Assembly (NCBI GenBank): GCA_026770705.1
Contig: JANJGN010000014.1
Span: 123,318,001-123,382,000 of the forward strand
Direction: 5' to 3'
Length of the DNA stretch: 64,000 bases
Source: Isurus oxyrinchus
Lineage: Eukaryota
Shown here: piece after piece, positions 1-60,290 of the stretch
Numbering within the stretch: position 1 is the stretch's first letter
Layout of the letters: each line of letters opens with the position of its first letter
Made by a program: the position numbers and the translations under genes
Notes under the pieces: generated by a model
Seen by the model: the letters and a program-made list of their open reading frames with translations, nothing else
Told to the model about the DNA's origin: nothing
Databases searched by the model: none

Positions 1-269
1 GTTCCAGGTTAGAATAATCCCAAATAAGACATTTAGCTTTTGTATGCCACTTGGTTATGCTATTACAACACTTTAGTGAACCATTTACATGAAGTTCTGT
101 TAGGTTTAGATTTCATTCAACAAGTGAAACAAAATGATGAATTTTAAAGTATGTTTACAATATATATATATATATATTTACAACATATATAAATTTACCA
201 CATACGTTTTGTTTTTGTGTATGAGATGTATAAGAGATGAATAAAACCATGCTTTGTTTTCACTTTTAG

Positions 270-514
270 AAAAAACCTGTCAGAAGACGATATGAACCAT
301 ATGGAATGTACTCTGATGATGATGCAAACAGCGATGCATCTAGCGCTTGTTCTGAGCGGTCTTATGGCTCCAGAAATGGAGGCATTCCACACTACTTGCG
401 CCAGACAGAGGATGTGGCTGAGGTCTTAAACCACTGTGCTAGCTCAAATTGGTCTGAGAGGAAAGAAGGGCTTGTTGGCCTTCAAAATCTATTGAAAAGT
501 CAGAGAACATTAAG
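270..514 (+). CDS. CLASP1: CLASP1 coding exon (KKPVRRRYEPYGMYSDDDANSDASS...LQNLLKSQRTL), start of TOG3 region
   Basis: Acceptor ttttag at 264-269, donor gtaagg at 515. Translation is nearly identical to vertebrate CLASP1 as recalled. Ends in phase 2. Confidence 0.96.
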
Positions 515-1162
515 GTAAGGTTCTGCAAAATGTACTATCATGTTGCAGGATCTTTTCAATTCTGCCTCTCAAATCACTTGATTATTCTAATAACCTGGCA
601 TGTTAGAATCCATTGCTTTGGTAACTTAAGATTTTTGAGGTAGTGAAGGTTAGACTGATTCAAATTTGGGATTTTCCAGTCAGCATTATAAATGTTAGTC
701 TTAACTAATTTAAAATAGGTTAGTACCGTTAGTAGAATCAGAAAATCTAGGCATGAGTGTTTGAATCTATCAAGGTAAAATTTTGAACGGAGTTGTTGAA
801 TAAAATCAGACCATTTGATTTGCCCATAAACTTTGAAATATAATCTCTTGAAATAAATTGTGTAATGTAGCTTTACCTTTAAGCTATACAAAAATTCCCA
901 ATTAAAGAAAACACTATACAAGTGAGCCATCATACACTCAATATGATGAGTCATTTAAAATGACAATTGAAAATTAAAATTATTCTGTTCCAAATATATT
1001 GAAGCATTTTAATAACAAGCAGAATTTTATTTTCTTTCCATTGCTATATTTTGTATCTAAAAAAAAACAAGCTTCCTAGTGCCTATGTTGACCTAATGTG
1101 ACTTAATACAGTGCTTTTAATAAACTCTTGATCTGCACATTTTATATTAATTTACTTTACAG

Positions 1163-1226
1163 CCGTGTTGAATTGAAGCGGTTATGTGAGATCTTCACTC
1201 GTATGTTTGCAGATCCTCATAGCAAG
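1163..1226 (+). CDS. CLASP1: CLASP1 coding exon (S-RVELKRLCEIFTRMFADPHSK)
   Basis: tttacag acceptor, gtaact donor. 64 nt completes the AG|C Ser codon and ends in phase 0. Confidence 0.96.
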
Positions 1227-1954
1227 GTAACTTCTACTAAAATAGTTTTTGCAAGCAGCTTCTTGCATGTACATGTAAACAGCTTTGTGTTTTGTGTGAA
1301 TGCATGCAATATTTTAAAAATATTTGTATAAATGGAACATAATATGGAAGGTGATTGTTTTCAAAAATATGCTGTGTTTTGTATTTCCTTGTTTATGGCA
1401 ATACAGGTCATTTATAAAGGTAGATCTATTTAAGAGTTGGTTGACAGAAAAGATGCAAATTTTTAAAAGGTTATTATTTCTTTAAAAAGAAAGCAACTTT
1501 CATATTTTCAGATAAGGATTGAACTTTGAAAATATTTATTCAGCAATCCCTGTACAATTATAACCTAGCTTGCAGCAAGTAAAAATAGAATTTTAAAGCT
1601 GAATTTAAATTTAACTTAAACTTCCTGAAAGGATTTTGCTTAGACCCAAGTCCAAAAGCCAACCTACTTAATGAATGTTGGTGCAATTTATACACATTTT
1701 TTCAAAAATTCTATGAAAGCAATTGTTGCCTTTTTCAGTTGTTCTAGAAAATTATAGTACAATAAATGATTTGAAAGATGTACTGGAATTTGTATTTTGG
1801 CATGCAGAGAATGCTGGTGGATGTGAGAATTTGTTTGCAATTGCCCAGCTTTATCTAAAAGCCTGTGTATTATGAAGTGATTAATGTATGTCGGTAACCA
1901 TTACAAAGCACTGTTGATTGTAAGTCTACTGCATTAATCAATGGTTTGTTTTCT

Positions 1955-2026
1955 TGCATGTCCTGTCCTTTGTTGGAACTCACAACAGAGAGTAAGTGTT
2001 GCTTTTACTGTTTACCACAAACTAAC
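1955..2026 (+). promoter_or_regulatory. Splicing-regulatory motifs around the microexon: TGCATG (RBFOX-type) 1955-1960 and ACTAAC (QKI-type) 2021-2026
   Basis: Motifs read directly; further TGCATG at 1264 and 1301 in the same intron. Function is inferred. Confidence 0.55.
1989..1991 (+). CDS. CLASP1: 3-nt microexon AGA (Arg; PHSK-R-VFSM)
   Basis: caacag|AGA|gtaagt: acceptor and perfect donor around one codon, phase 0/0. Supplies the Arg of the PHSKRVFSM isoform that neither flanking exon encodes. Confidence 0.85.
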
Positions 2027-2932
2027 ATATATTGGTGCCCTTGAAAAATACGTTTTTATTTTGAGGAAAAGTTAGTTTCAAATCTTATTGAAGAATAATA
2101 AATCTCAATTAGTTACTGTAATTAGTGCAAGTTTAAATTGTTACAATCAAGTTAAGGACCATTAACATTTAAAAATAAATGTGGCTACCTCATTTTAACC
2201 AATACAACTAATCCACAAGATTTCACTTTTTTTAACAAAAACTTATTGTACACAAAAGAATTAAATAAAACAAACACTATAAACTTAATAATATGGCTTT
2301 AACTACATTTATTGTTCACTCAGGTCTACTTCTTCCCCCAAGTATTCTCATATAAGACACATCAAGCTTAAAGTTATTTACTTCTTTAGGGACCACCCAT
2401 AAGTATGCCCCAGTCCTCTGGAAACTATCTTTAATTCTCCTCAGTTCCAGCAATTCTAAGAGGTAAAACTTTTGATTTACCATGTCTTGACTGTGGATAC
2501 CTGAATCCATTTTTTGTGGTTATTTTTTTCAATACTTCCAAGCTGCTTCAGCTGATCATTTTCTTTTGCAATAAGACACTGTGAGGTCCACTGTGCATTC
2601 TCCCACTAGCTTCAAACTAAACAACCTCCAGCTTCTGTTCCCGCACAAGATTCAAACTGAGATTAAGCCTCACCCGCCTTCACATGCAGTCAATGCTTAA
2701 GTTAGCGTTTTACTCTGTCTACTGTGCAGGCCTATCTAACTGTTATTTACTTTGTCTATCTTCTCAGTCAGCTGCAATCCACATAAAATGCAATTAACTT
2801 TTCCAGCAAATGCCCAGATGAATTGAAACCATAGAACTTCTTAATCTCAGCCTATCTCTATGACAATGTAGCCTGCAGTCTGCTGTCCTCAAACAGACCT
2901 TTAAGTTAATTATCCTTCATTTCCAATTTCTT

Positions 2933-3310
2933 AGAACATAAGAAATAGGAGCCTTAACTCCACTTTTCTGTCAGGCCCCCATAACCCTCGGCTCTCTTGT
3001 CAATCAAAAATCTGTCTAACTCAACCTTGAATATATTCAATAACCCAGCCTCCACTGCTCACTGGGGAGGAGAATTCCAAAGACCCTTGAAGAAGAAATC
3101 CCTCCTCATCTCCATCTTAAATGGGAGAGCCCTTATTTTCCCACTTAGTTCTTGATTCCCTCATGAGAGGAATCATCCTCTCAGCATTACTCTGTCAAGC
3201 CCCCTCAGAATCTTGTATGTTTCAATAAAATCACCTGTCGTTCTTCGAAACTCCAGTGGGTATGGGCCCAACCTGCTCAAGCTTTCCTCATAGGGCAAAC
3301 CCCTAATCCC
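2933..3310 (-). mobile_element. CR1-type LINE 3' fragment
   Basis: agaacataagaaatagg tail; similar to the RT C-terminus/3'UTR of other copies such as 50825-51300. Confidence 0.75.
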
Positions 3311-4432
3311 AGAAAGCTACCTGTATGCACAGGGTCAGATCATTTTAATGGGCTGAATGCAGCACCAATGAAGGTAGGCCATTTAGAGAAAGGGCTTACT
3401 TCTAGAATTGGGGAAGGAGAATAAGCCGCAATTTCAGATTTGATCTGGTGAAATAGATGGATTTTACTACATTTCAGGGTTTACTGAATGCTTTTAAAAA
3501 TTAATTTAGTTCTGCCTCCCAAAACAAAAACACCTCTCTGGATTGCACTTCTTCGCAGATATTGCAGACATCATGTCTCTGGCTTTTTAACAAACAAGCC
3601 CACTTGCTGTTCTATAGCTCTCTCTCTCTTCCTTCTACTCTGACCTTTTTAACCTACAACCTAAAAGTTATATTCTAAAATGCAAGAGCCATGAGCTAGA
3701 TATTCGCATAACAGGGCGCCTGCCTTCTGCCATTGAGTGTTGGCACACTGAGGATATCTGCAGATTATGTTTTCAGAACATTAGAGACATTAACTGAAAT
3801 TTAGCAGATATCGCCAGATTTTTGTTCATTTGGATTCTACATGCAACATTGGCATTGTACCAGGTTGAAATATTCGGAGCTCAGCCGTAGAAATTAAGTA
3901 ATTTTTGAGGTCTTGTTGCTGTTTTCTTCCATGAAATGAACAAAGTTGATTTTCACCTGGTGGGGGCAACATAACCTATATTCCTTTAGATGTTTTACAT
4001 ACTGGAAGGCCTAGTAACTGATAATTGATTCTTTACAAATGTGAAAAATTAAAAGATAATTTCAAATGAAAAGATCGGTGCTTGAACCCCACTGCCCCCT
4101 TAAGTACAGTTTCACAGTGTGAACTGTAACTACTAGATACCGCATCACATTTTAAAAAAAGATATTGCTTCAAATTCATGTGGCTAAAGAAGAATACTGC
4201 TAGAGAATAGAGTGCTTCAATTTTATATTCAGCCATTTGTCTAGGTGTGCTTTATTTCTGTTTCAGCAGAAGTTATTCCTCCTTAACTTTGTCATCAATT
4301 ACAAATTAATTTTATGAAGGAAATGACATTTGCCAGGTTGTTTGTTTGTGGTATCAAACTGCTTTTTTGATACATGGTATGCCATTCCTGCCAAACACCA
4401 ACAACAGTCATGATACATTCTTTTTATTTTAG

Positions 4433-4596
4433 GTATTCAGCATGTTTTTGGAAACTTTAGTAGATTTCATCATCATCCACAAAGAAGACTTACAGGATTG
4501 GCTATTTGTGCTCCTGACTCAGCTTCTAAAGAAGATGGGTGCTGATTTGCTAGGTTCTGTACAGGCCAAGGTTCAGAAGGCACTAGATGTCACCAG
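4433..4596 (+). CDS. CLASP1: CLASP1 coding exon (VFSMFLETLVDF...KALDVT-R)
   Basis: ttttag acceptor, gtcaga donor. 164 nt, phase 0 to 2. CLASP1 peptide. Confidence 0.96.
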
Positions 4597-5979
4597 GTCA
4601 GACCAGCGATCAAGCTGTTTCCTATAATATTTACATTGAGGATGTACATAAACTAAGTATCTTTTGTGCATACTATTTTTGTCGGTATTACTCTCTCATG
4701 ATGTAATTTGGTTGGGTGGTGACTCCTAAGTGCATAATAAATAGGAGCAGGTATAGTTATTTAGTCCATCGAAGCTACTGCACCTTCGACAAGATTGTAG
4801 CTACTCTCCTACCTCAACTCCATCTTTCCACATTTTCCCATATTCTTGGTTCTTTTGTTATCCAAAAAACTCTCGATCTCTGACCTGATTGTGCTCAATG
4901 ACTGAGCATTCATAGCTCTCTGGCTAGAGAATTGCAAAGATTGCTTTGAGTGAAGAAATTTCTCTGTATGGTCACGTTCCTTTCTGACCTTTGAATGTGG
5001 TCTGTTTCTCATAAGGTGGTTTAATAATGATGCATTAAGCAGAGATCTGGCAGAGGATCTCCATTGATTGTGGGTCTCATTAGATGGCTAATAGCCAATA
5101 GCTTATTGAACCTTGTGATCCAGGAAAACTAAGTCTTGAATGCTGTTGGAGGTGCTAATTCAGCCTCCTTTATATTGGCTGGTGCTATCCGAGATGGGAA
5201 AACTGCACTCCCAGTGCTGATAGCACATGGTCAATACAAAATTACATTTACATAGATTATAATGGTATACTTAGGTTAAAAGAGTATTATTTATTTTATT
5301 CAGGATGCCAATAGTAATTGAAATTTTAATTTACCGTACTGTAGTTGTACATTCTCCTAGCATTTGGTTGCTTTGTGATCCACTCAGTTACATTTCAAAA
5401 AGTCTAATTTCTCTGGCATTTAACTTTATGGTTTCTGAGGGCTTATATTGCATCCTAGCTCAGCAAACACCTTACTGGCTGGGTTGCATTAACTGTCTGA
5501 CTTCCCAACTGTGGGACCTGTTTCTGGAAACTTTCAGGGCCCCGAAATGATCAGCTTGTTTACCAGCTACTCCAGAGTCTTGCATTGCTGGTCAAACAAC
5601 TATATTTTTGCATTTTCTTGAACTTCTTTCAAATGCAACTGTTCTGTAAAATCAGTTATATTCTCCCCTTCTGACCTGTTTCCAAATGCCCTCTAACTTG
5701 ATAAAACTAGTGGGAAAAGCCTGGTTTTTTAAATTTTTATAATCCATGCTGTCCCTGGGATTCTCATGAAAATGTAATAAATGCTTTATCACCAAATTAC
5801 AACACTGCCTTCTTGGCCCAAGATTTTTTTGCTCCACATAGGGTGCTGTGTTAATAATTGAAAAGCACTTAAAATTTCAGGATTATGCTAAAACTCAGTG
5901 TTATTGATCTGAAATAAGGCACATTACCATAACTGTGGATGCTTGGTGTGCAATTTCAACAAAGCCAATATGTCAGCTA

Positions 5980-15981: not shown

Positions 15982-18900
15982 TTGTCCACTTCCTGGAGGT
16001 ACCTAAATTCCTGTGCCGTGATTTTGTCACACCTGTCATCTTTTTTACCACCCACTTTTGGGTAGCACATACCTATAACAAAGTAAGGTAAACTATATCA
16101 ATCCTCCCTTCATAAGTTGTATAGTTACTTTTCCAAATTACATCCACTATGCACTTTCTTCTAAGAGACACTGTAAGGAAGTTTCACTTTTACAACCATT
16201 ACTTTTAAAATGTTTAAGTTCCAGATTTTATTTTTAATACAAAAATCAAGGCTCACTTGTCTGAGGTTCATATTAAAGGCCATCCGTAAAAATGTCCAAA
16301 TTTTGTCTTCAGCGTTTGGGACTGCTGTTCAGCCTTGGAAGGAAATGCCCTGGTTGATTGGGGGCAAAAAAATCCTGACCAACCCATTCATTCAACTGAC
16401 CTGGAACACTCATTTGTTTCAATAGACCTGCCCCTATTTCTGCAGGCATACTCAGCACTGCTGAGCCCTTCAATATCATTTAACTTACTCCGCAAAGTAT
16501 CAGAGGAAAATCTCAATACCATATTATAAGATGAACTTTTGACTTGTTCCGTCACTGTCACTGGCCCCAGTGTTATGCCATCCATGATAGAACAAGTTTA
16601 TTGTTCAGTGCCATTGGAGATCTGCCTATGTTTGTAAACATACTCTTTGTAGTGAAATAATAATTTGTATTTTGGTAGTAGTGATTAGATTTTATAGCAG
16701 AGTATATGCATGCCAAGTAACCTTGTCAAATTGAAAACCTTTAAGTATTTGTTTCCTGTAAGTAGTATTAGTCTTAACATTTATTTTTTAAACTTTAACA
16801 TTTATCAGGTATTTTTTGTTTATATGAACAAGTGTTTATGGCAGCATGATGTTTACAGTGAGAACGCTGCTTTCTGTAGCTGATTTCACAGCCATGTTTG
16901 CTGAAAGTCCCTGAAGCACCAAGTTCTGAATATCATGACCTTATTGAACTGCACCTTTTTCTGAATGACTCCCTTTTAACATTTTGTGTTCACTACTCCA
17001 ACAATGGCAAGCTGTATTTCTATATTTTTTTTATTGCAAGAAGGATTGCAAGATTCTTCACAAGAGAGAAAAGTTAGAGAAATAAATGCTGAGCCATGAT
17101 GGAAGCGGTTCGGGGAATGATCAGTGGCTTGGTCAAGCATTTGGCAGTTGCAAATTTTTTTTTTAAGGGATTTAGAGAAGGTAAGAGTTTTGGAAAGGGA
17201 GTTACAGATTTAAAACTTGCCAGCTGGCATGTATATAAAATGATAGTCCAAAAAGTAAAAAAAAACAGGAAAGGTATAAGGTACAGAAATGAGATGAGGC
17301 CCTGGAGAACTTGAAGGATAAGGCAAGGATTTAAAATTTAAAGACCCAGATTTTTGCATTCAGCATCAACGGAACATCATTCACTGTTCACTTTGCAGAC
17401 AGCCACCCACAAACCTGGGCCATAGAGTGCAAATTTGCTCTAATCTGGTGTCTGTTTCAACGTGACTCCCTCTACAGGGCATATCAAGGAATCCTTAGTG
17501 TGACAATCAGAGCCGAATTTTAACCCCAAAAAGAATGGCTGGGTTTGGGTTGGCTGAGGGGGAGTTAGTCTCAAAAATCTGTTTTCTGACCCAATCCATT
17601 TGCAGCTTTAACTGAAGTTGGAATTTGGGTAGACAACCAACTTGATCAGAGGAGGCTAGTTGGAACTTGAAACATAAATGGGGCTGTGAGCCTCATTGGC
17701 GTGCAGGTTTTAAACTTTGACTGCTGTCAGCCAGGTTTCCCGACTGTTGAGAAACCTGACAACGTCATTGAGGCAAAAGCCTCCTGGATCCAGATGCCTT
17801 CCTGAAAAGCCTCTGCAGTTGCAGTGTTCATCAAGGGAATTGCAGTTTTGTCCCACCGCCAGGCCCTGATCTCTCAACACCATAAGGCCATCCATCCCAC
17901 CCTGCCACCCTTCCTTCCCGTCCCGGCGATCTCTGAACTTCATCCCCCACCCCTGATTGCCAGCGCACTCAATTGACTCTGCCAACCCGATCAACTCCTG
18001 CCCCTGAAATTGGTTTGCCTGCTGCTGTAGCTGTCACTAACCAGCTTCCCACCTGAATGGAGGCCCAGCCTGTCAATCAGTGATACCAGTAACCTGTTGT
18101 GGCATTAGAGCACTATAGTGTGTGCGGGAACCCCAAGTTGTGGTTTACATGTGACTTTCTCACTGACACATTCCCTGCACAGGTCAATAAACACTTTGCA
18201 CATGAGCCTAAACCAGGATATATAAAGCGGAAAATGTAGATTAGATTTAAGTGATGTACAAAAAGTAAAATAATAATCAGGAAGTGCAGATGGAATTAAG
18301 CAAGAGCGATAAGATAGAAAAAGTAGGAAAATTATTTTGGTTTTTGTTTTGCTTTAAATCTCTAGCACTAATTTTCTTATGAGGAAGTGAGTCTGCACAT
18401 TTGTAAAAATAAGTTTTCAGGGCCAAAGAGGTTGTTAAATTGTAATGATCATTTATCATTTTAAAAATTTCCTTACTCCTCAATGCACTAGCACTAATAT
18501 TTTTAGCTGTTGCTTATTGCGGAACTAGTGGTCAGGTACTCTAAATTCACTCTGTTGCATTGATTTTAGTGCGAGTCTATGGACGAGGACTATACCAGCA
18601 CAATCCTGTGGAGGAGCTGGGTGTCTCTGATGGCAGCTTCCAGATTTCCATATTTAACTCCACATTTGGCTGCCAGAAGTTGTTGTTCAATTTATCTCAT
18701 CATAACAGCCAGTGCAGTTATTTACTATGTATCAATCAGTTGATTTTAGTGAACGTACTTCATCAACCCTTTCGTCTGAAGTCAACAAAATTTCCAGAAA
18801 TGTCGTTCATTCATATTGGACATAGGAATTCTTTGATTTTTTTTTTTCATTTTTGGCATGCAATGCTCCATTAATAAATTTTTCAAAGGATCCAAAAGAG

Positions 18901-20000: not shown

Positions 20001-20644
20001 CACATTCCATGAGCTGTATGATTCCATAACTTACATTCATCATTCCAAAGTCTTTGGTCAAAAGCACAACAATATTTTTAATGTTTTTTTAAAATTCCTT
20101 ACAGATTCAAGGGACAAGTATCATTTGGTTTGTTATATTTTAGGTTTGTTTGCTTGTAATATTATTCTACTGTTGGTTCATTGTACATGTAACATTGAAA
20201 ACATAACTCTTCATCAGACTAAGAAGCGGACTTCAAAAGTGCAAAATTTTAGACGTTGTAGGATCTAGGCCATGTCTAAGTGTTGCAACTGAGAGTTGTA
20301 AAACACACAACATTTTTTTGTACACGCATCAGGCTGTTCTGCATAGATGGGCAACAAGATTGTGGTATTCCTTTGTCTTTTGAGATGCCACTGAAACTTA
20401 ATTTCTTTCCCACAGTCAAGTAAATGATTAGCTTTTTAAAATACATATGGAGTGAAGAAAACAGCAAATTGGCAGCTGTGAGGTGACAGTCTAAGTAAAA
20501 CAAAAGCCAGCATCTCTCTGTTGCAAACATAACTAGTCATTTTCTGTTGTGGCTTGTCAGCTTTATATAAGTTTGTTAATCATGCAACTGCTGTTTATTG
20601 TATACTGAAATTTTTCTAATACCCTTCCCACCTGTCAAACCCAG

Positions 20645-20740
20645 ACTGTGCATAGTTGGTTGAGTGATGAGGTGTTGGCCAGGTCCTGTTCGAGTACCTC
20701 TGGGCCTGGTGAAATTGGCCTGGAAGAAAAGTGTAAACAG
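20645..20740 (+). CDS. CLASP1: Putative 96-nt cassette exon TVHSWLSDEVLARSCSSTSGPGEIGLEEKCKQ between DVRK and AAQ
   Basis: CTAAT branch-like motif 20616-20620, pyrimidine tract, ccag acceptor, cag|gtagaa donor. 32 stop-free codons, phase 0/0, in non-repeat sequence. Resembles an insert I recall in teleost Clasp1 isoforms (not verified). Confidence 0.75.
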
Positions 20741-21449
20741 GTAGAAAAATGTTGCACCTACTAATCTCAAGTTGCTTTTTTCCCTGTATCATTGGCTCTT
20801 TTTTTAACTTGGCTGCACAAGGGTCTTGGCCTGACTGACATCTATTTCTGTGTAACAACCATGTGTTTGTTCACTCTACTGTATTGCCAACGGCAGTTGC
20901 CTTCCCATAACTATACAACACACAGGTGGTGGTCTCTGGGAATAAGGTTTGCCTTTTCTTTGCAGTGTTAATAAGTAACATACAGCATTGGCCCTGACAT
21001 GAGGACTGCTGCTTGTAGTGTTGGAATGCATGCTCATCTGTTAACTAATGGATCTAAAAGTGCATTAACACAGTTCTTAAATATATGTTTCTTTGGAACT
21101 TGAAATGTATTCTTTGATATCAATGCAAATTGGATTGGTCCCAGCAAGCTTGTAGTAAACCTATTCTTGTATGTTAAATTTTATCTAAAATGTATAAGCA
21201 TTTTGTGGATAATATGACTGTAATACATCTGATCTTATAACATTGTCCACTTTAGTTGGATGCACCACTCTGTTTATTAATTCTAACAGAATATTAACTT
21301 TTTATTTCAGCGCATTCCTAGCAGATTTATGCATTTGCACTGCATAAGTTTATTATTCTGGTAATTTAAAATCTGTTTAGCTGTTCTGACATGCACGGCT
21401 CCTGAGTTAATTGAATATTAAAAGTTATTGCTACCTTGAATGAATTGCC

Positions 21450-37960: not shown

Positions 37961-39838
37961 GTTCTGCTATGTACTGCAGTTTTCTGCCAAAAAAATTTAT
38001 GTTCCTGAAAGTTCTTGATCTATTGTGCATGTATCCAGTCCACTGGCTCTGCGTCACGCAAGATCCTGGAGTATACAAATGTGCTGTTGTAAGAGAAAGT
38101 ATATCTTGACCAATTGTGTTGGCTTTGCATTGAGGGAAGGTCGGAGTGGTGAGGGTTAAATGCCAAAATGTGACTGAAGTAGTTTGTGGATTGTGAGACT
38201 AAACTAATTGGCAGTTATATTCCAGAGGTGATTCTAGAATCTGGGCATTTATGATGTGACTCTGTGATTTAAGGCCACTGAAGTCAATCAAAACATTAAA
38301 AGATGGTGTTAGCTACATGTGAGAATTTTTTTTAAAAAAGCAAAAAAAAACCAAGAACTCTGGATACAGCATCTACTAAAAATGGAAAAGATGATACATT
38401 ATCAGACTAGAAGAATGATATACAGTGATGACTCTACATGTGTTTAAAGACCAAGTCTTAGTTGTTTTCTTGGAGTATTGAACAGTGCAGTATTCTACAG
38501 TAAAACATTGGGATGAATTGGGGGGGAGATATTGAGTGGAGTGCCTCAGGTCTTGGATGAGACATCTAAAATCTTAAGCAAAAAATGGGAGCGGGGGGCA
38601 CTTCATAAGAAGGTACTGAAAATAAACCTGGAAAAATATTTGACAAAACAGAAGGGCAAAAGAGCACAAATTAGGGTTTTGACCAATAGGCTTAGGAACA
38701 TAATTGGGAATTATTTATTTTACTTAGGGTGATCAATAATCAGTTGTTAGGATACATGATCGCAGATGGGACACTGGACCAATGTGGCCATGGGGTGGTA
38801 TTCAGGAAAGATGAAATCCAGTGTAACAAAGTGTCATCTTTATCCAAGCCTAGGTTGCGATCTGATCGATTCCTGGCTCAAGGATGCAGTTGGTTGAACA
38901 GACAGGTTGAAGGGTAGTGGTCTCTGGAGTTTGGCTGAGCATGGCTGACTAGTTTAAGGTGCCCAATTTAAGTTCCAGCCTTTGTGGAGATGTGGGTTTG
39001 AATTTCACCATGGCCGGAATTGTAGCAATTGTTGGAAGCAATTGTTGGTTCTCCTGGCAGTTCAACAAATCTCTTCAGGCAGACAATTGACAGCTGAAAT
39101 TTAGTATGGGGACCTCTGTGGTGTTTCATTTGTTTATGAAAAGGAAAAATGTGTAGGGCTATGGGGAAAAGGCAGGGACTGACACTAGTGAATTGCATCT
39201 TCAGAAGATCAGAGCAAACGTACAGGCCGAATGGCCTCCCCCTGTGTTGTAACCATTCTACGATTGAAGGACTTGTATTCTCTTCTGCAACCTGAGTGAG
39301 TGAAAGAATATTCTGACACTAAATATTGCATTCATCCAGGCACACAATTTGCTGACATAGCCTAAAATGTGCTTTAGTGCTAGTTTGCGCCACTGCAGCT
39401 AAGCTTGTGAAATATGTTTTATCAAAAAAATCCTGGATCCCTTCTTCCTTAATGCTATTTAATGTGATGGTTATAATTTGACAAAAGAAATGAATGACAT
39501 AAGACTACGAAAATCATTTGATACTAAAACCCAATTATGTAGGTGCGAAAAAACGTTTGTAAAACCTCACTTGCACTTACCATACTGAAAGTCTGAAATA
39601 TTTATTATTTGTGTTGTGCAATCTCTGTTGCCCTTGTGTGTTTGTATGGTATTGGCTAAAGTGGATCAACGCTGCTGCTTGCTTTGATGAGGTGTTCTCT
39701 GTTTGCTATTCTGCTTCTATTAATGTTCTGAAATTTTTCTTCAGTAAAGCATGACCAAAAGCCACTCGGAATATGGTTTTCTTTCTCTTTTTTGCCTTTC
39801 TCGTTCTTTCTCTTTCTCTGACCACACTGTGACTGCAG

Positions 39839-39955
39839 TCGATTCTGGGGTTGGAGTGCAGATGGGCTCTCAAAGCATCCCCCCACCCCTTCTCAACCTC
39901 ACTCCATCCCCACAGTTCCTACCCACAAGACCTTCCGGCGTTCTTACTCGCCCAG
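39839..39955 (+). CDS. CLASP1: 117-nt cassette exon (RFWGWSADGLSKHPPTPSQPHSIPTVPTHKTFRRSYSP-S)
   Basis: Long CT-rich tract with tgcag acceptor, gtaact donor. Phase 2/2, so skippable. Matches the mammalian CLASP1 RLWGWSADGLAKHP...RRSYSPS segment as recalled. Confidence 0.92.
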
Positions 39956-58489: not shown

Positions 58490-60290
58490 CCAATTGTGTG
58501 TGTGTTAATGAACCTTTTTATCTTGCACTCATCAGGACAAACATAAGAATGCCAAATTTCAAGCACTTTATACTATAGGAGAAAAGAGTGTTGATTAGTT
58601 GACAAATCAACTCTGGCTGAGGCGTTGTCATGGCGAAAGCATTGGCAACTTCAGGCTCCCCAAACTCCTGCCTAATCCAAAAAAGGTGCAAGGCTTGAAC
58701 ATATCCCTTTTGTTTGCAGAGAGTGAGTCCATGAGTATGAATGTATGTCTCTTCTAGCAAACGTAAATGAGCCACATTATGATCTCAACTGATTATCTTA
58801 AATTGCTCTTAGTATAGCTATTTACACACTCAGAATTGTTCAGCCAATACTGCCCAATCGCAGAATCACATGCTACCATAGATGGTTTTGTTTTGGGTTT
58901 TGCAAGCACAGTCTAAACTCTGCCTATTATGAACAACCAAAGAAACATGCTGTTTCGTGAAACTAACACTTTTTCATTGTTATTGTGGTTTATTGTAAAG
59001 TAAGTTTATGGGTATGAGTATAGATGGTTCTGTCTGTGAGATTTTATTGAATTAGAGACAGATAGACTATAAGCTTGAAATTATCAAAAATTAGGGGTAA
59101 AAGGCATTTGAAATGCTAATGAGCAAACATGGATGAGGACTTAGCATGTAGGGTATGAAGGAAATTTGCCCCATTTTTAGATAAATGAAGGAGTTGTTTA
59201 GGTTTCAAAGGGATAATGGGATATTTACAACTAACAAGATAAGCAAGGCCAAGCATTGTGTTTGTTTTTACCAAATGTACTGACCATATTGGCAACATGA
59301 AAGATTTTTATATTATGGAAATAGTAAATTTCCAAAGACAGTTATAACAATGGAATTTACAGTTTAAAGTGAGAGAAACACATAAAGAAGGATGGAAGGT
59401 TATGTTGGGGGGGGGGGGGGGTGATGGGGGGTGGCATGTAAGATGTAAAATGTCTGTGTGAAACAGCTTTGGGGAATCCTATAGCTACTTTTGCAGAAGT
59501 TTGCTGTGTCCAGTAACCAAAGGTGGAGGAAAGCCTTTGGAATTCAGCTGTCAAGTGGATGTTTGTGGTGACTTTGCTGGGTTGATATAATTTAAAATCT
59601 ATTTTGGACTGTTGCCTTAAAGAGGGTGTGTAGTTGGGAGACAGGTTAATTAGGGATGTTGAGATTTGTTATTGCATTAAGTAACTATAATCTTATGTAT
59701 GTTCTTGAAATGTTTTCTTTTGTTAATAAATGTTTTGATTTAGCTTTTAAAATCTCTAAAGGTGTTAGTGGACTCAGTACTTACTTCCGATTTCAGTGCA
59801 CAAATCTTCTTGCCATAAATACAAATTGTAGAACCGTTGTGATAGCGTGACCAAATTTCCCTTGTGGATTTGGCTTGCCTGGCACACATCACCTGTCACG
59901 TCATAACAGCTGTTTGATTCGATCAACCATTCGCTAAGACGTACAGCCTATGCACCGGCACTGAAATTCTTACATGGTGTTGCTCAGTTGTGTGGTAGAC
60001 AGAACGTTGTTTTGGACTGCCAACAGCTGATAGTGGAATATACCACTCATGTAGCCACTACATAGTAGCAATGTGTCATGGCTTGCTTAACTTGCTGTTC
60101 AAATTTTTTGAGATACTTTTCCTTTCCAGGATAATTTGAGGCAAACCGGGTACTTTTCAAGACCATAAGTGGTGCTCTTTGGCCCATTTGCACAATACAC
60201 AATGAACAATGATCTGATCAGGGTAGCCATTGTGCCGCAGGATTGCTTTGGTCTGCTTTTGCGAGATCGTTGTGAAGATGAAAGTCCAAA
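58490..60290 (-). mobile_element. Penelope-like element fragment (same family as 31790-32581), interrupted by a solo LTR
   Basis: AHLRLLEETYIHTHGLTLCKQK C-terminus; shared ttttgttttgggttttgcaagc; host resumes after 59912. Confidence 0.75.
58953..59908 (+). mobile_element. Solo LTR, 956 bp, same family as 43413-44362
   Basis: Perfect 4-bp TSD GCTG (58949-58952, 59909-59912); ends ...tcataaca; AATAAA near 59725. Confidence 0.82.

Follow-up and report, generated by a model that had tools for sequence, protein, structure and literature searches.

The microexon and its setting in shark CLASP1

The window, by which we mean the whole 64,000-nt stretch of Isurus oxyrinchus DNA analysed here, carries a CLASP1 gene of chondrichthyan type, three exons of which are identical to shark CLASP1 proteins. 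On its plus strand, a coding exon at 270–514 (KKPVRR...RTL, with 100% identity to shark CLASP1) opens TOG3 with HEAT repeat A; by protein comparison, an exon ending in ...FADPHSK at 1163–1226 supplies a helix and the loop of HEAT repeat B and closes at a phase-0 donor, and an exon starting with VFSMFLET at 4433–4596 encodes the second helix of repeat B together with repeat C. The phase-0 intron between the last two contains a single codon, AGA (Arg), at 1989–1991 on the same strand, with the acceptor CAG at 1986–1988 and the donor GTAAGT at 1992–1997; the context reads cacaacag AGA gtaagtgt, and the intron segments on either side are 762 nt (5') and 2441 nt (3') long. Inclusion of the codon gives PHSKRVFSM with the reading frame kept. 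The sequence-only reading had proposed that a CLASP1 of shark type has a 3-nt arginine exon in TOG3, and the sequence, the frame and the identity to shark proteins bear this out. The PHSK and VFSM flanking exons are present as it described them, and so are the two motifs that it had singled out, a TGCATG starting at 1955, 34 nt 5' of the exon, and an ACTAAC starting at 2021, 30 nt 3' of it.

The intronic surroundings, all on the plus strand, comprise a likely branch point (TTAAT, 1934–1938), a T-rich tract at 1945–1974 that is set back from the acceptor, the RBFOX-type TGCATG at 1955–1960, a GGAACTC...CAG acceptor stretch at 1975–1988 that is kept across related loci, and a consensus donor, GTAAGTGT, at 1992–1999. 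The role of the branch point is suggested by comparison with the other loci described below, and comparison of loci together with the published position rule points to the TGCATG as a putative, probably repressive element. The ACTAAC at 2021–2026 is QKI-like and is unconserved at this place.

We considered whether the arginine could arise by a 3-nt shift of the flanking donor or acceptor and rejected this, since the adjoining intronic triplets encode valine and a stop, and a separate exon is thus needed for Arg here. The bare motif is weak evidence in itself, because although the pattern YAGAGAGTRAGT has two matches in the window against none in 100 shuffles, the residues predicted from the second match, at 58720, are found in none of the 143 proteins spanning that site, and it is unsupported as a further microexon. 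The case for the exon at 1989–1991 thus rests on conservation and not on the motif alone. The second match, a cag AGA gtgagt at 58717–58728, belongs to a phase-1 intron of CLASP1 and is accompanied by a T-rich tract. In birds and turtles this junction shows a Glu variant of one residue, which possibly stems from a tandem acceptor.

Several other features of the gene were observed alongside. A 21-nt stretch at 18366–18386 in a CLASP1 intron has an acceptor, a pyrimidine tract and a GTGAGT donor, and two longer CLASP1 exons, at 20642–20755 and 39837–39953, are present in some shark isoforms and missing in others. Upstream of the window in the same genome (G000) are 27-nt SANP and 24-nt LLGDSRTK CLASP1 microexons (G000:C14:123293704, L008, and 123310214, L006), which are neural or neuromuscular in mouse. 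High-copy interspersed repeats at 2137–2260 and 2918–3300, in the intron 3' of the microexon, dominated the sequencing reads placed on this region.

Conservation in CLASP2 and in vertebrate-type loci

The VFSM exon has two matches in the genome, this CLASP1 and a CLASP2-type paralogue on contig C5, and in the 57,368-nt CLASP2 intron the element is repeated at G000:C5:147445787, with TGCATG at −34, GTTGGAACTC, AG, AGA and then GTAAGTGT. When the CLASP2 intron is scanned with the window flank from −40 to −3, which leaves out the splice sites and the exon, this site is the best match with 26 of 38 positions, against 23 for the runner-up and a background mean of 9.9 (sd 2.8) for the 38-nt flank; the shorter flank from −25 to −3 puts it second (16/23 versus 18/23 elsewhere). 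The local alignment score is 53, where 60 shuffles reach 33 at most, and among 31 tiles of the CLASP1 intron a single one, on a repeat, ranks above the exon-bearing tile.

A scan of metagenome contigs yielded 18 loci, 17 of which were examined (the exception, L032, matches weakly and in part), and their labels as vertebrate- or invertebrate-type reflect similarity only. The four vertebrate-type loci (L015–L018, 91–98% identity) all have YAG AGA GTAAGT in this intron, a configuration found in none of the eight invertebrate-type loci with an intron at the position and both flanking exons; the remaining five have no intron there or too little flank. Six vertebrate-type loci can therefore be compared, namely the window CLASP1, the CLASP2 of the same genome and L015–L018, and the codon AGA and the donor GTAAGT are the same in all of them, as is the presence of a GGA-containing acceptor stretch. 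TGCATG lies upstream in five of the six, at −34 in four and at −44 in one, and is absent from L016, which is CLASP2-like; in the shark CLASP2 a further TGCATG lies 3' of the exon at +37, a position associated with activation. The other five loci have CTAAY at −53 to −66 where the window has TTAAT at −55. Downstream of the exon, the window alone has ACTAAC at +30, ACTAAY within 50 nt occurs in one of the six loci (and within 200 nt in none of the three other CLASP1-like loci), and CTAAY at +11 to +31 occurs in three of the six, so that the downstream ACTAAC is rejected as a conserved QKI enhancer. Rfam gave no matches.

Taken at sequence level, these comparisons indicate that the exon is older than the CLASP1/CLASP2 split and at least as old as the jawed vertebrates. 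The sequence-only reading had dated it to the jawed-vertebrate ancestor and had looked to alignment with orthologous vertebrate introns for support; a conserved upstream stretch is indeed present in CLASP2 and in L015–L018, and the origin appears to lie further back than was claimed, before the duplication of the two genes, which was probably part of the early vertebrate genome doublings. We regard it as very likely that AGA 1989–1991 is a real exon in this genome.

Protein records and splicing data

Annotated proteins differ at this site. Among the first 120 homologues listed, 32 carry the Arg and 77 are without it, the other 11 failing to cover the site or being divergent there. In the 81 chondrichthyan records, a set that leaves out one partial record not spanning the site, Arg is present in 14 (five species) and absent in 66 (eight species), one record being mis-spliced. 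Both forms occur together in none of the 13 chondrichthyan record sets, the Arg being absent from all 32 Scyliorhinus torazame records and present in all five of Carcharodon. The presence of Arg by record set looks like a pipeline effect, and its presence in shark records may be owed to homology rather than to shark reads. A further 136 proteins were examined, 90 of which span the site; 76 of these have less than 75% identity, and 74 of the 76 are without an extra residue, with one extra Tyr and one 23-residue insert in the others. Because these distant homologues and single records of amphioxus, Styela and lamprey are without Arg, the short loop is taken to be ancestral.

Other insertions are seen at the same place. 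P0339 of Ciona intestinalis has an extra Tyr exactly at the microexon position, which is due to a slip of annotation or else to a one-codon insertion of independent origin, and no site for such a Tyr codon was seen in the tunicate-like introns L021 and L024. Mammalian and unnamed CLASP1 records (P0211, P0133, P0134 and P0163) have another alternative exon, IADSE..., after PHSK at the same junction, which inserts 23 residues in P0211.

The exon is already known, since catalogues list it for mouse and zebrafish and RefSeq proteins of sharks imply it. MicroExonator Table S1 contains AGA rows for mouse Clasp1 (chr1_+_118547655_118547658, 'Annotated', coverage 822, conservation 6.25), mouse Clasp2 (chr9_+_113887044_113887047, 'Annotated', coverage 2013, conservation 6.19) and zebrafish (chr9_+_38268829_38268832, coverage 320, in a transcript that also has an LLGDSRNK exon) (PMC7821500). 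The tables hold coordinates and no gene names, and the genes were identified through neighbouring rows that encode CLASP peptides, with the host intron assigned from exon order and spacing. The mouse and zebrafish exons have the same codon as the shark exons, in the same genes and in the same order after the 24-nt LLGD exon, although the intron segments differ in length (about 2200 and 206 nt in mouse), and the window AGA is the shark orthologue of the mouse Clasp1 3-nt exon and of the zebrafish exon. The expectation that annotation would miss such an exon describes its erratic treatment in the shark record sets well, but it does not hold generally, given the 'Annotated' status in mouse.

In mouse, the Clasp1 exon belongs to cluster Included I2, with no neural difference and a PC1 of 0.005, while SKM.diff and Heart.diff are both TRUE and PC2 is +0.09 (PMC7821500). 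PC2 is negative in all 25 of the muscular or neuromuscular rows listed, of 139, and from this difference we infer that the Clasp1 exon, otherwise broadly included, is skipped in heart and skeletal muscle, a direction that derives from the sign of a principal component and not from PSI values; the row is also flagged Alt5 and RESCUED, and such events are quantified less consistently (PMC7821500). The Clasp2 exon falls in cluster NN1 with a change of −1 and is excluded in neural tissue from E10.5–11.5, and it also differs in skeletal muscle, in a direction that the table does not give (PMC7821500). The mouse Clasp1 coordinate is absent from the mouse–zebrafish conservation file, in which the Ensembl gene ids tried likewise had no match. 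The shark exon would presumably follow the same tissue pattern.

Sequencing contigs were available from eight runs, none on record as RNA, and none of them crosses the CLASP1 donor at 1226. Four runs compared with 200–4700 gave contigs on intronic sequence alone, mostly repeats, and the four others, compared with 200–2300, gave one contig on exon 268–436 and one CLASP2-type contig. The former, from run X8, matches 268–436 without differences and has a loose end that reads as the upstream LLGDSRTK exon. In a CLASP2 contig of the same run, the PHSK exon is spliced to an acceptor that precedes the CLASP2 microexon by 622 nt (L014:4965 onward, G000:C5:147445165, in the CLASP2 intron); the joined sequence reads Ile and then a stop and, going by this one contig, may be a poison or terminal exon.

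The TOG3 loop and a model for the exon

The AGA lies in the region encoding TOG3, for which 3WOZ, the crystal structure of CLASP2 TOG3, has a chain without the Arg, and no sequence with Arg was found among solved structures. In mouse CLASP2 TOG3, P699 and H700 correspond to the tubulin-binding A384 and N385 of Stu2 TOG2, W660 also corresponds to a tubulin-binding residue there, and HEAT repeat B has been modelled in contact with the neighbouring protofilament (PMC6641166). The spacing of W19, P58 and H59 in the 3WOZ chain fits this mouse numbering, and Arg therefore enters after K702, three places past the His. The insertion falls in the loop that links the two helices of HEAT repeat B, and the placement of the residue in a HEAT loop of TOG3, as first suggested, agrees with the 3WOZ comparison, with the mapping in PMC6641166 and with AlphaFold2. 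In an alignment of 66 sequences, D57 never varies and H59 and K61 hardly do. The AlphaFold2 models, built on an alignment in which most sequences lack the Arg, keep the fold in both forms (mean pLDDT 95.7 with Arg and 96.7 without; TM-score of the Arg form to 3WOZ, 0.95), and the differences between them are small and come from stretches that also differ at one further residue: the second helix of repeat B has S60 as its first residue in the form without Arg and K61 in the Arg form, the first helix is two residues longer with Arg, and pLDDT over residues 51–60 is 98 without and 88 with. As a separate observation, the HEAT-A loop tryptophan of TOG3, which is W660 in mouse and a modelled tubulin contact, reads Phe in the shark CLASP2 (G000:C5:147421208-147421450; L010, L012).

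We hold as somewhat more likely than not a model in which this is an ancient 3-nt cassette exon that is included by default, skipped through RBFOX in heart and skeletal muscle, and likely to tune the binding of TOG3 to the microtubule lattice. The consensus donor, together with the set-back branch point and pyrimidine tract, would favour inclusion, and RBFOX putatively bound at the upstream TGCATG would repress the exon; as this motif falls downstream of the likely branch point and ahead of the acceptor, a protein bound there could hinder recognition of the 3' splice site. RBFOX binding upstream of an exon is reported to repress it (bioRxiv 10.1101/2024.09.20.614071), and micro-exons repressed by RBFOX have been described (PMC4317164). 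A conserved (T)GCATG in the upstream intron, the mark of such repression, is present at the five loci noted above and makes the link to RBFOX drawn by the sequence-only reading plausible. Lower inclusion where RBFOX is high would fit Clasp1 in mouse muscle and fits Clasp2 in neural tissue, but not Clasp1 in embryonic brain; RBFOX proteins rise during neurogenesis, as reported for the timing of RBFOX2, yet the mouse Clasp1 exon is not reduced there. Since that exon is unreduced and zebrafish reads include the exon, RBFOX alone does not explain the difference between the paralogues. We also count against an RBFOX mechanism the absence of an upstream TGCATG from L016 and the extra TGCATG of the shark CLASP2. 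In the shark, the CLASP1 PHSK-AGA-VFSM junction is seen in no contig of the eight runs, none recorded as RNA, a result that speaks neither for nor against splicing.

At the protein level, the second helix of repeat B is predicted to begin one residue later when the Arg is included, and the loop would gain a positive charge three positions past a His modelled as a tubulin contact; by analogy such a re-registered tubulin-facing loop may alter lattice binding or rescue. TOG3 binds microtubules weakly and promotes rescue mildly (PMC6035287), and the effect of the Arg may therefore be slight. The analogy is with the cytohesins CYTH1/2/3, in which a 3-nt glycine microexon in the PH domain switches phosphoinositide preference (PMC6314551). 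Both exons are a single codon, common to paralogues and placed at a ligand-binding loop, whereas the cytohesins are unrelated proteins in which the residue is Gly and not Arg and the ligand a lipid and not tubulin, and it is for cytohesin only that function has been shown; the cytohesin exon is the best model for the way in which the CLASP exon could work.

The exon might be real, with the same tissue pattern, and yet have a main regulator other than RBFOX, either QKI at an ACTAAY-type branch point or a factor acting on the GGAACTC stretch, and this we hold to be unlikely. QKI competes at branch points, ACTAAY is found at −54, −60 and −67 in three of the six loci, the GGA-containing stretch is retained in all of them, and the mouse Clasp1 exon is not skipped in brain, but the window's branch-point region is TTAAT rather than ACTAAY and the exact −34 spacing of TGCATG is common to both paralogues. 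Very much less probable is the neural SRRM3/4-activated class, which the sequence-only reading had named as its first option. Neural SRRM3/4 microexons resemble it in being frame-preserving and conserved, with a set-back pyrimidine tract and a strong donor, and each of the six loci has a TGC 28–44 nt upstream; the neural class is also that of other CLASP1 microexons, and inclusion in zebrafish reads would fit as well. However, the UGC for SRRM3/4 usually lies at a distance of about 7–20 nt, whereas the nearest TGC in the window, at −34, is inside TGCATG. In SRRM3/4-dependent microexons the UGC is described as following the pyrimidine tract and preceding the acceptor (PMC13174390), and the longer Clasp1 microexons in CHyMErA-seq insert 3–9 residues (PMC12868881). 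Neural SRRM3/4 microexons gain inclusion in neurons, whereas the AGA exon in neural tissue is unchanged in Clasp1 and lost in Clasp2, and a neural SRRM3/4 class is largely refuted in mouse.

It is also highly improbable that the motif in this shark is an unspliced decoy. Proteins lend no support to the comparable motif at 58720 and most chondrichthyan records are without the Arg, but the flanks are conserved in CLASP2 and at four other loci, and 14 records, from five species, do have the residue, which the flanking exons of this genome cannot supply. We give somewhat more weight, while still thinking it improbable, to a real and conserved exon whose Arg is nearly neutral for TOG3 and is retained for some other reason, such as splicing coupling, or is tolerated. 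The fold is essentially unchanged by the Arg, the 23-residue insert of mammalian CLASP1 (P0211) at the same junction suggests that the loop may tolerate change, and no paper on the function of the exon was found; against this, the AGA codon is the same in the six loci and the three table rows, across both paralogues, 74 of the 76 distant homologues otherwise keep a single loop length, and the site adjoins modelled tubulin contacts.

The exon is catalogued, yet it is apparently unstudied. No paper on what it does, what regulates it or its occurrence in both paralogues was found in a search largely without the subscription literature, there was no match to it in the VastDB-paper supplements searched (11 of 27, and others may list the exon and its tissue pattern), and it is not mentioned in the accessible parts of PMC13174390, PMC11653684, PMC4642858, PMC5630039 and bioRxiv 10.1101/2025.09.04.674271.

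We tentatively suggest, while regarding it as less probable than the model itself, that the exon and its repressor motif predate the CLASP1/CLASP2 duplication and were then divided, so that the Arg is left out of CLASP1 in striated muscle and out of CLASP2 in neurons. If so, excitable cells would give TOG3 its invertebrate-type loop again and alter microtubule rescue by one residue, and the sole solved TOG3 structure would be that of the minority isoform. Because TOG3 was solved without the Arg, CLASP biochemistry should state which form a construct contains, and shark protein databases offer one form or the other per record set and never both. The exon offers a minimal testable case of splicing at a microtubule-binding surface, with one residue, two paralogues and different tissue patterns.
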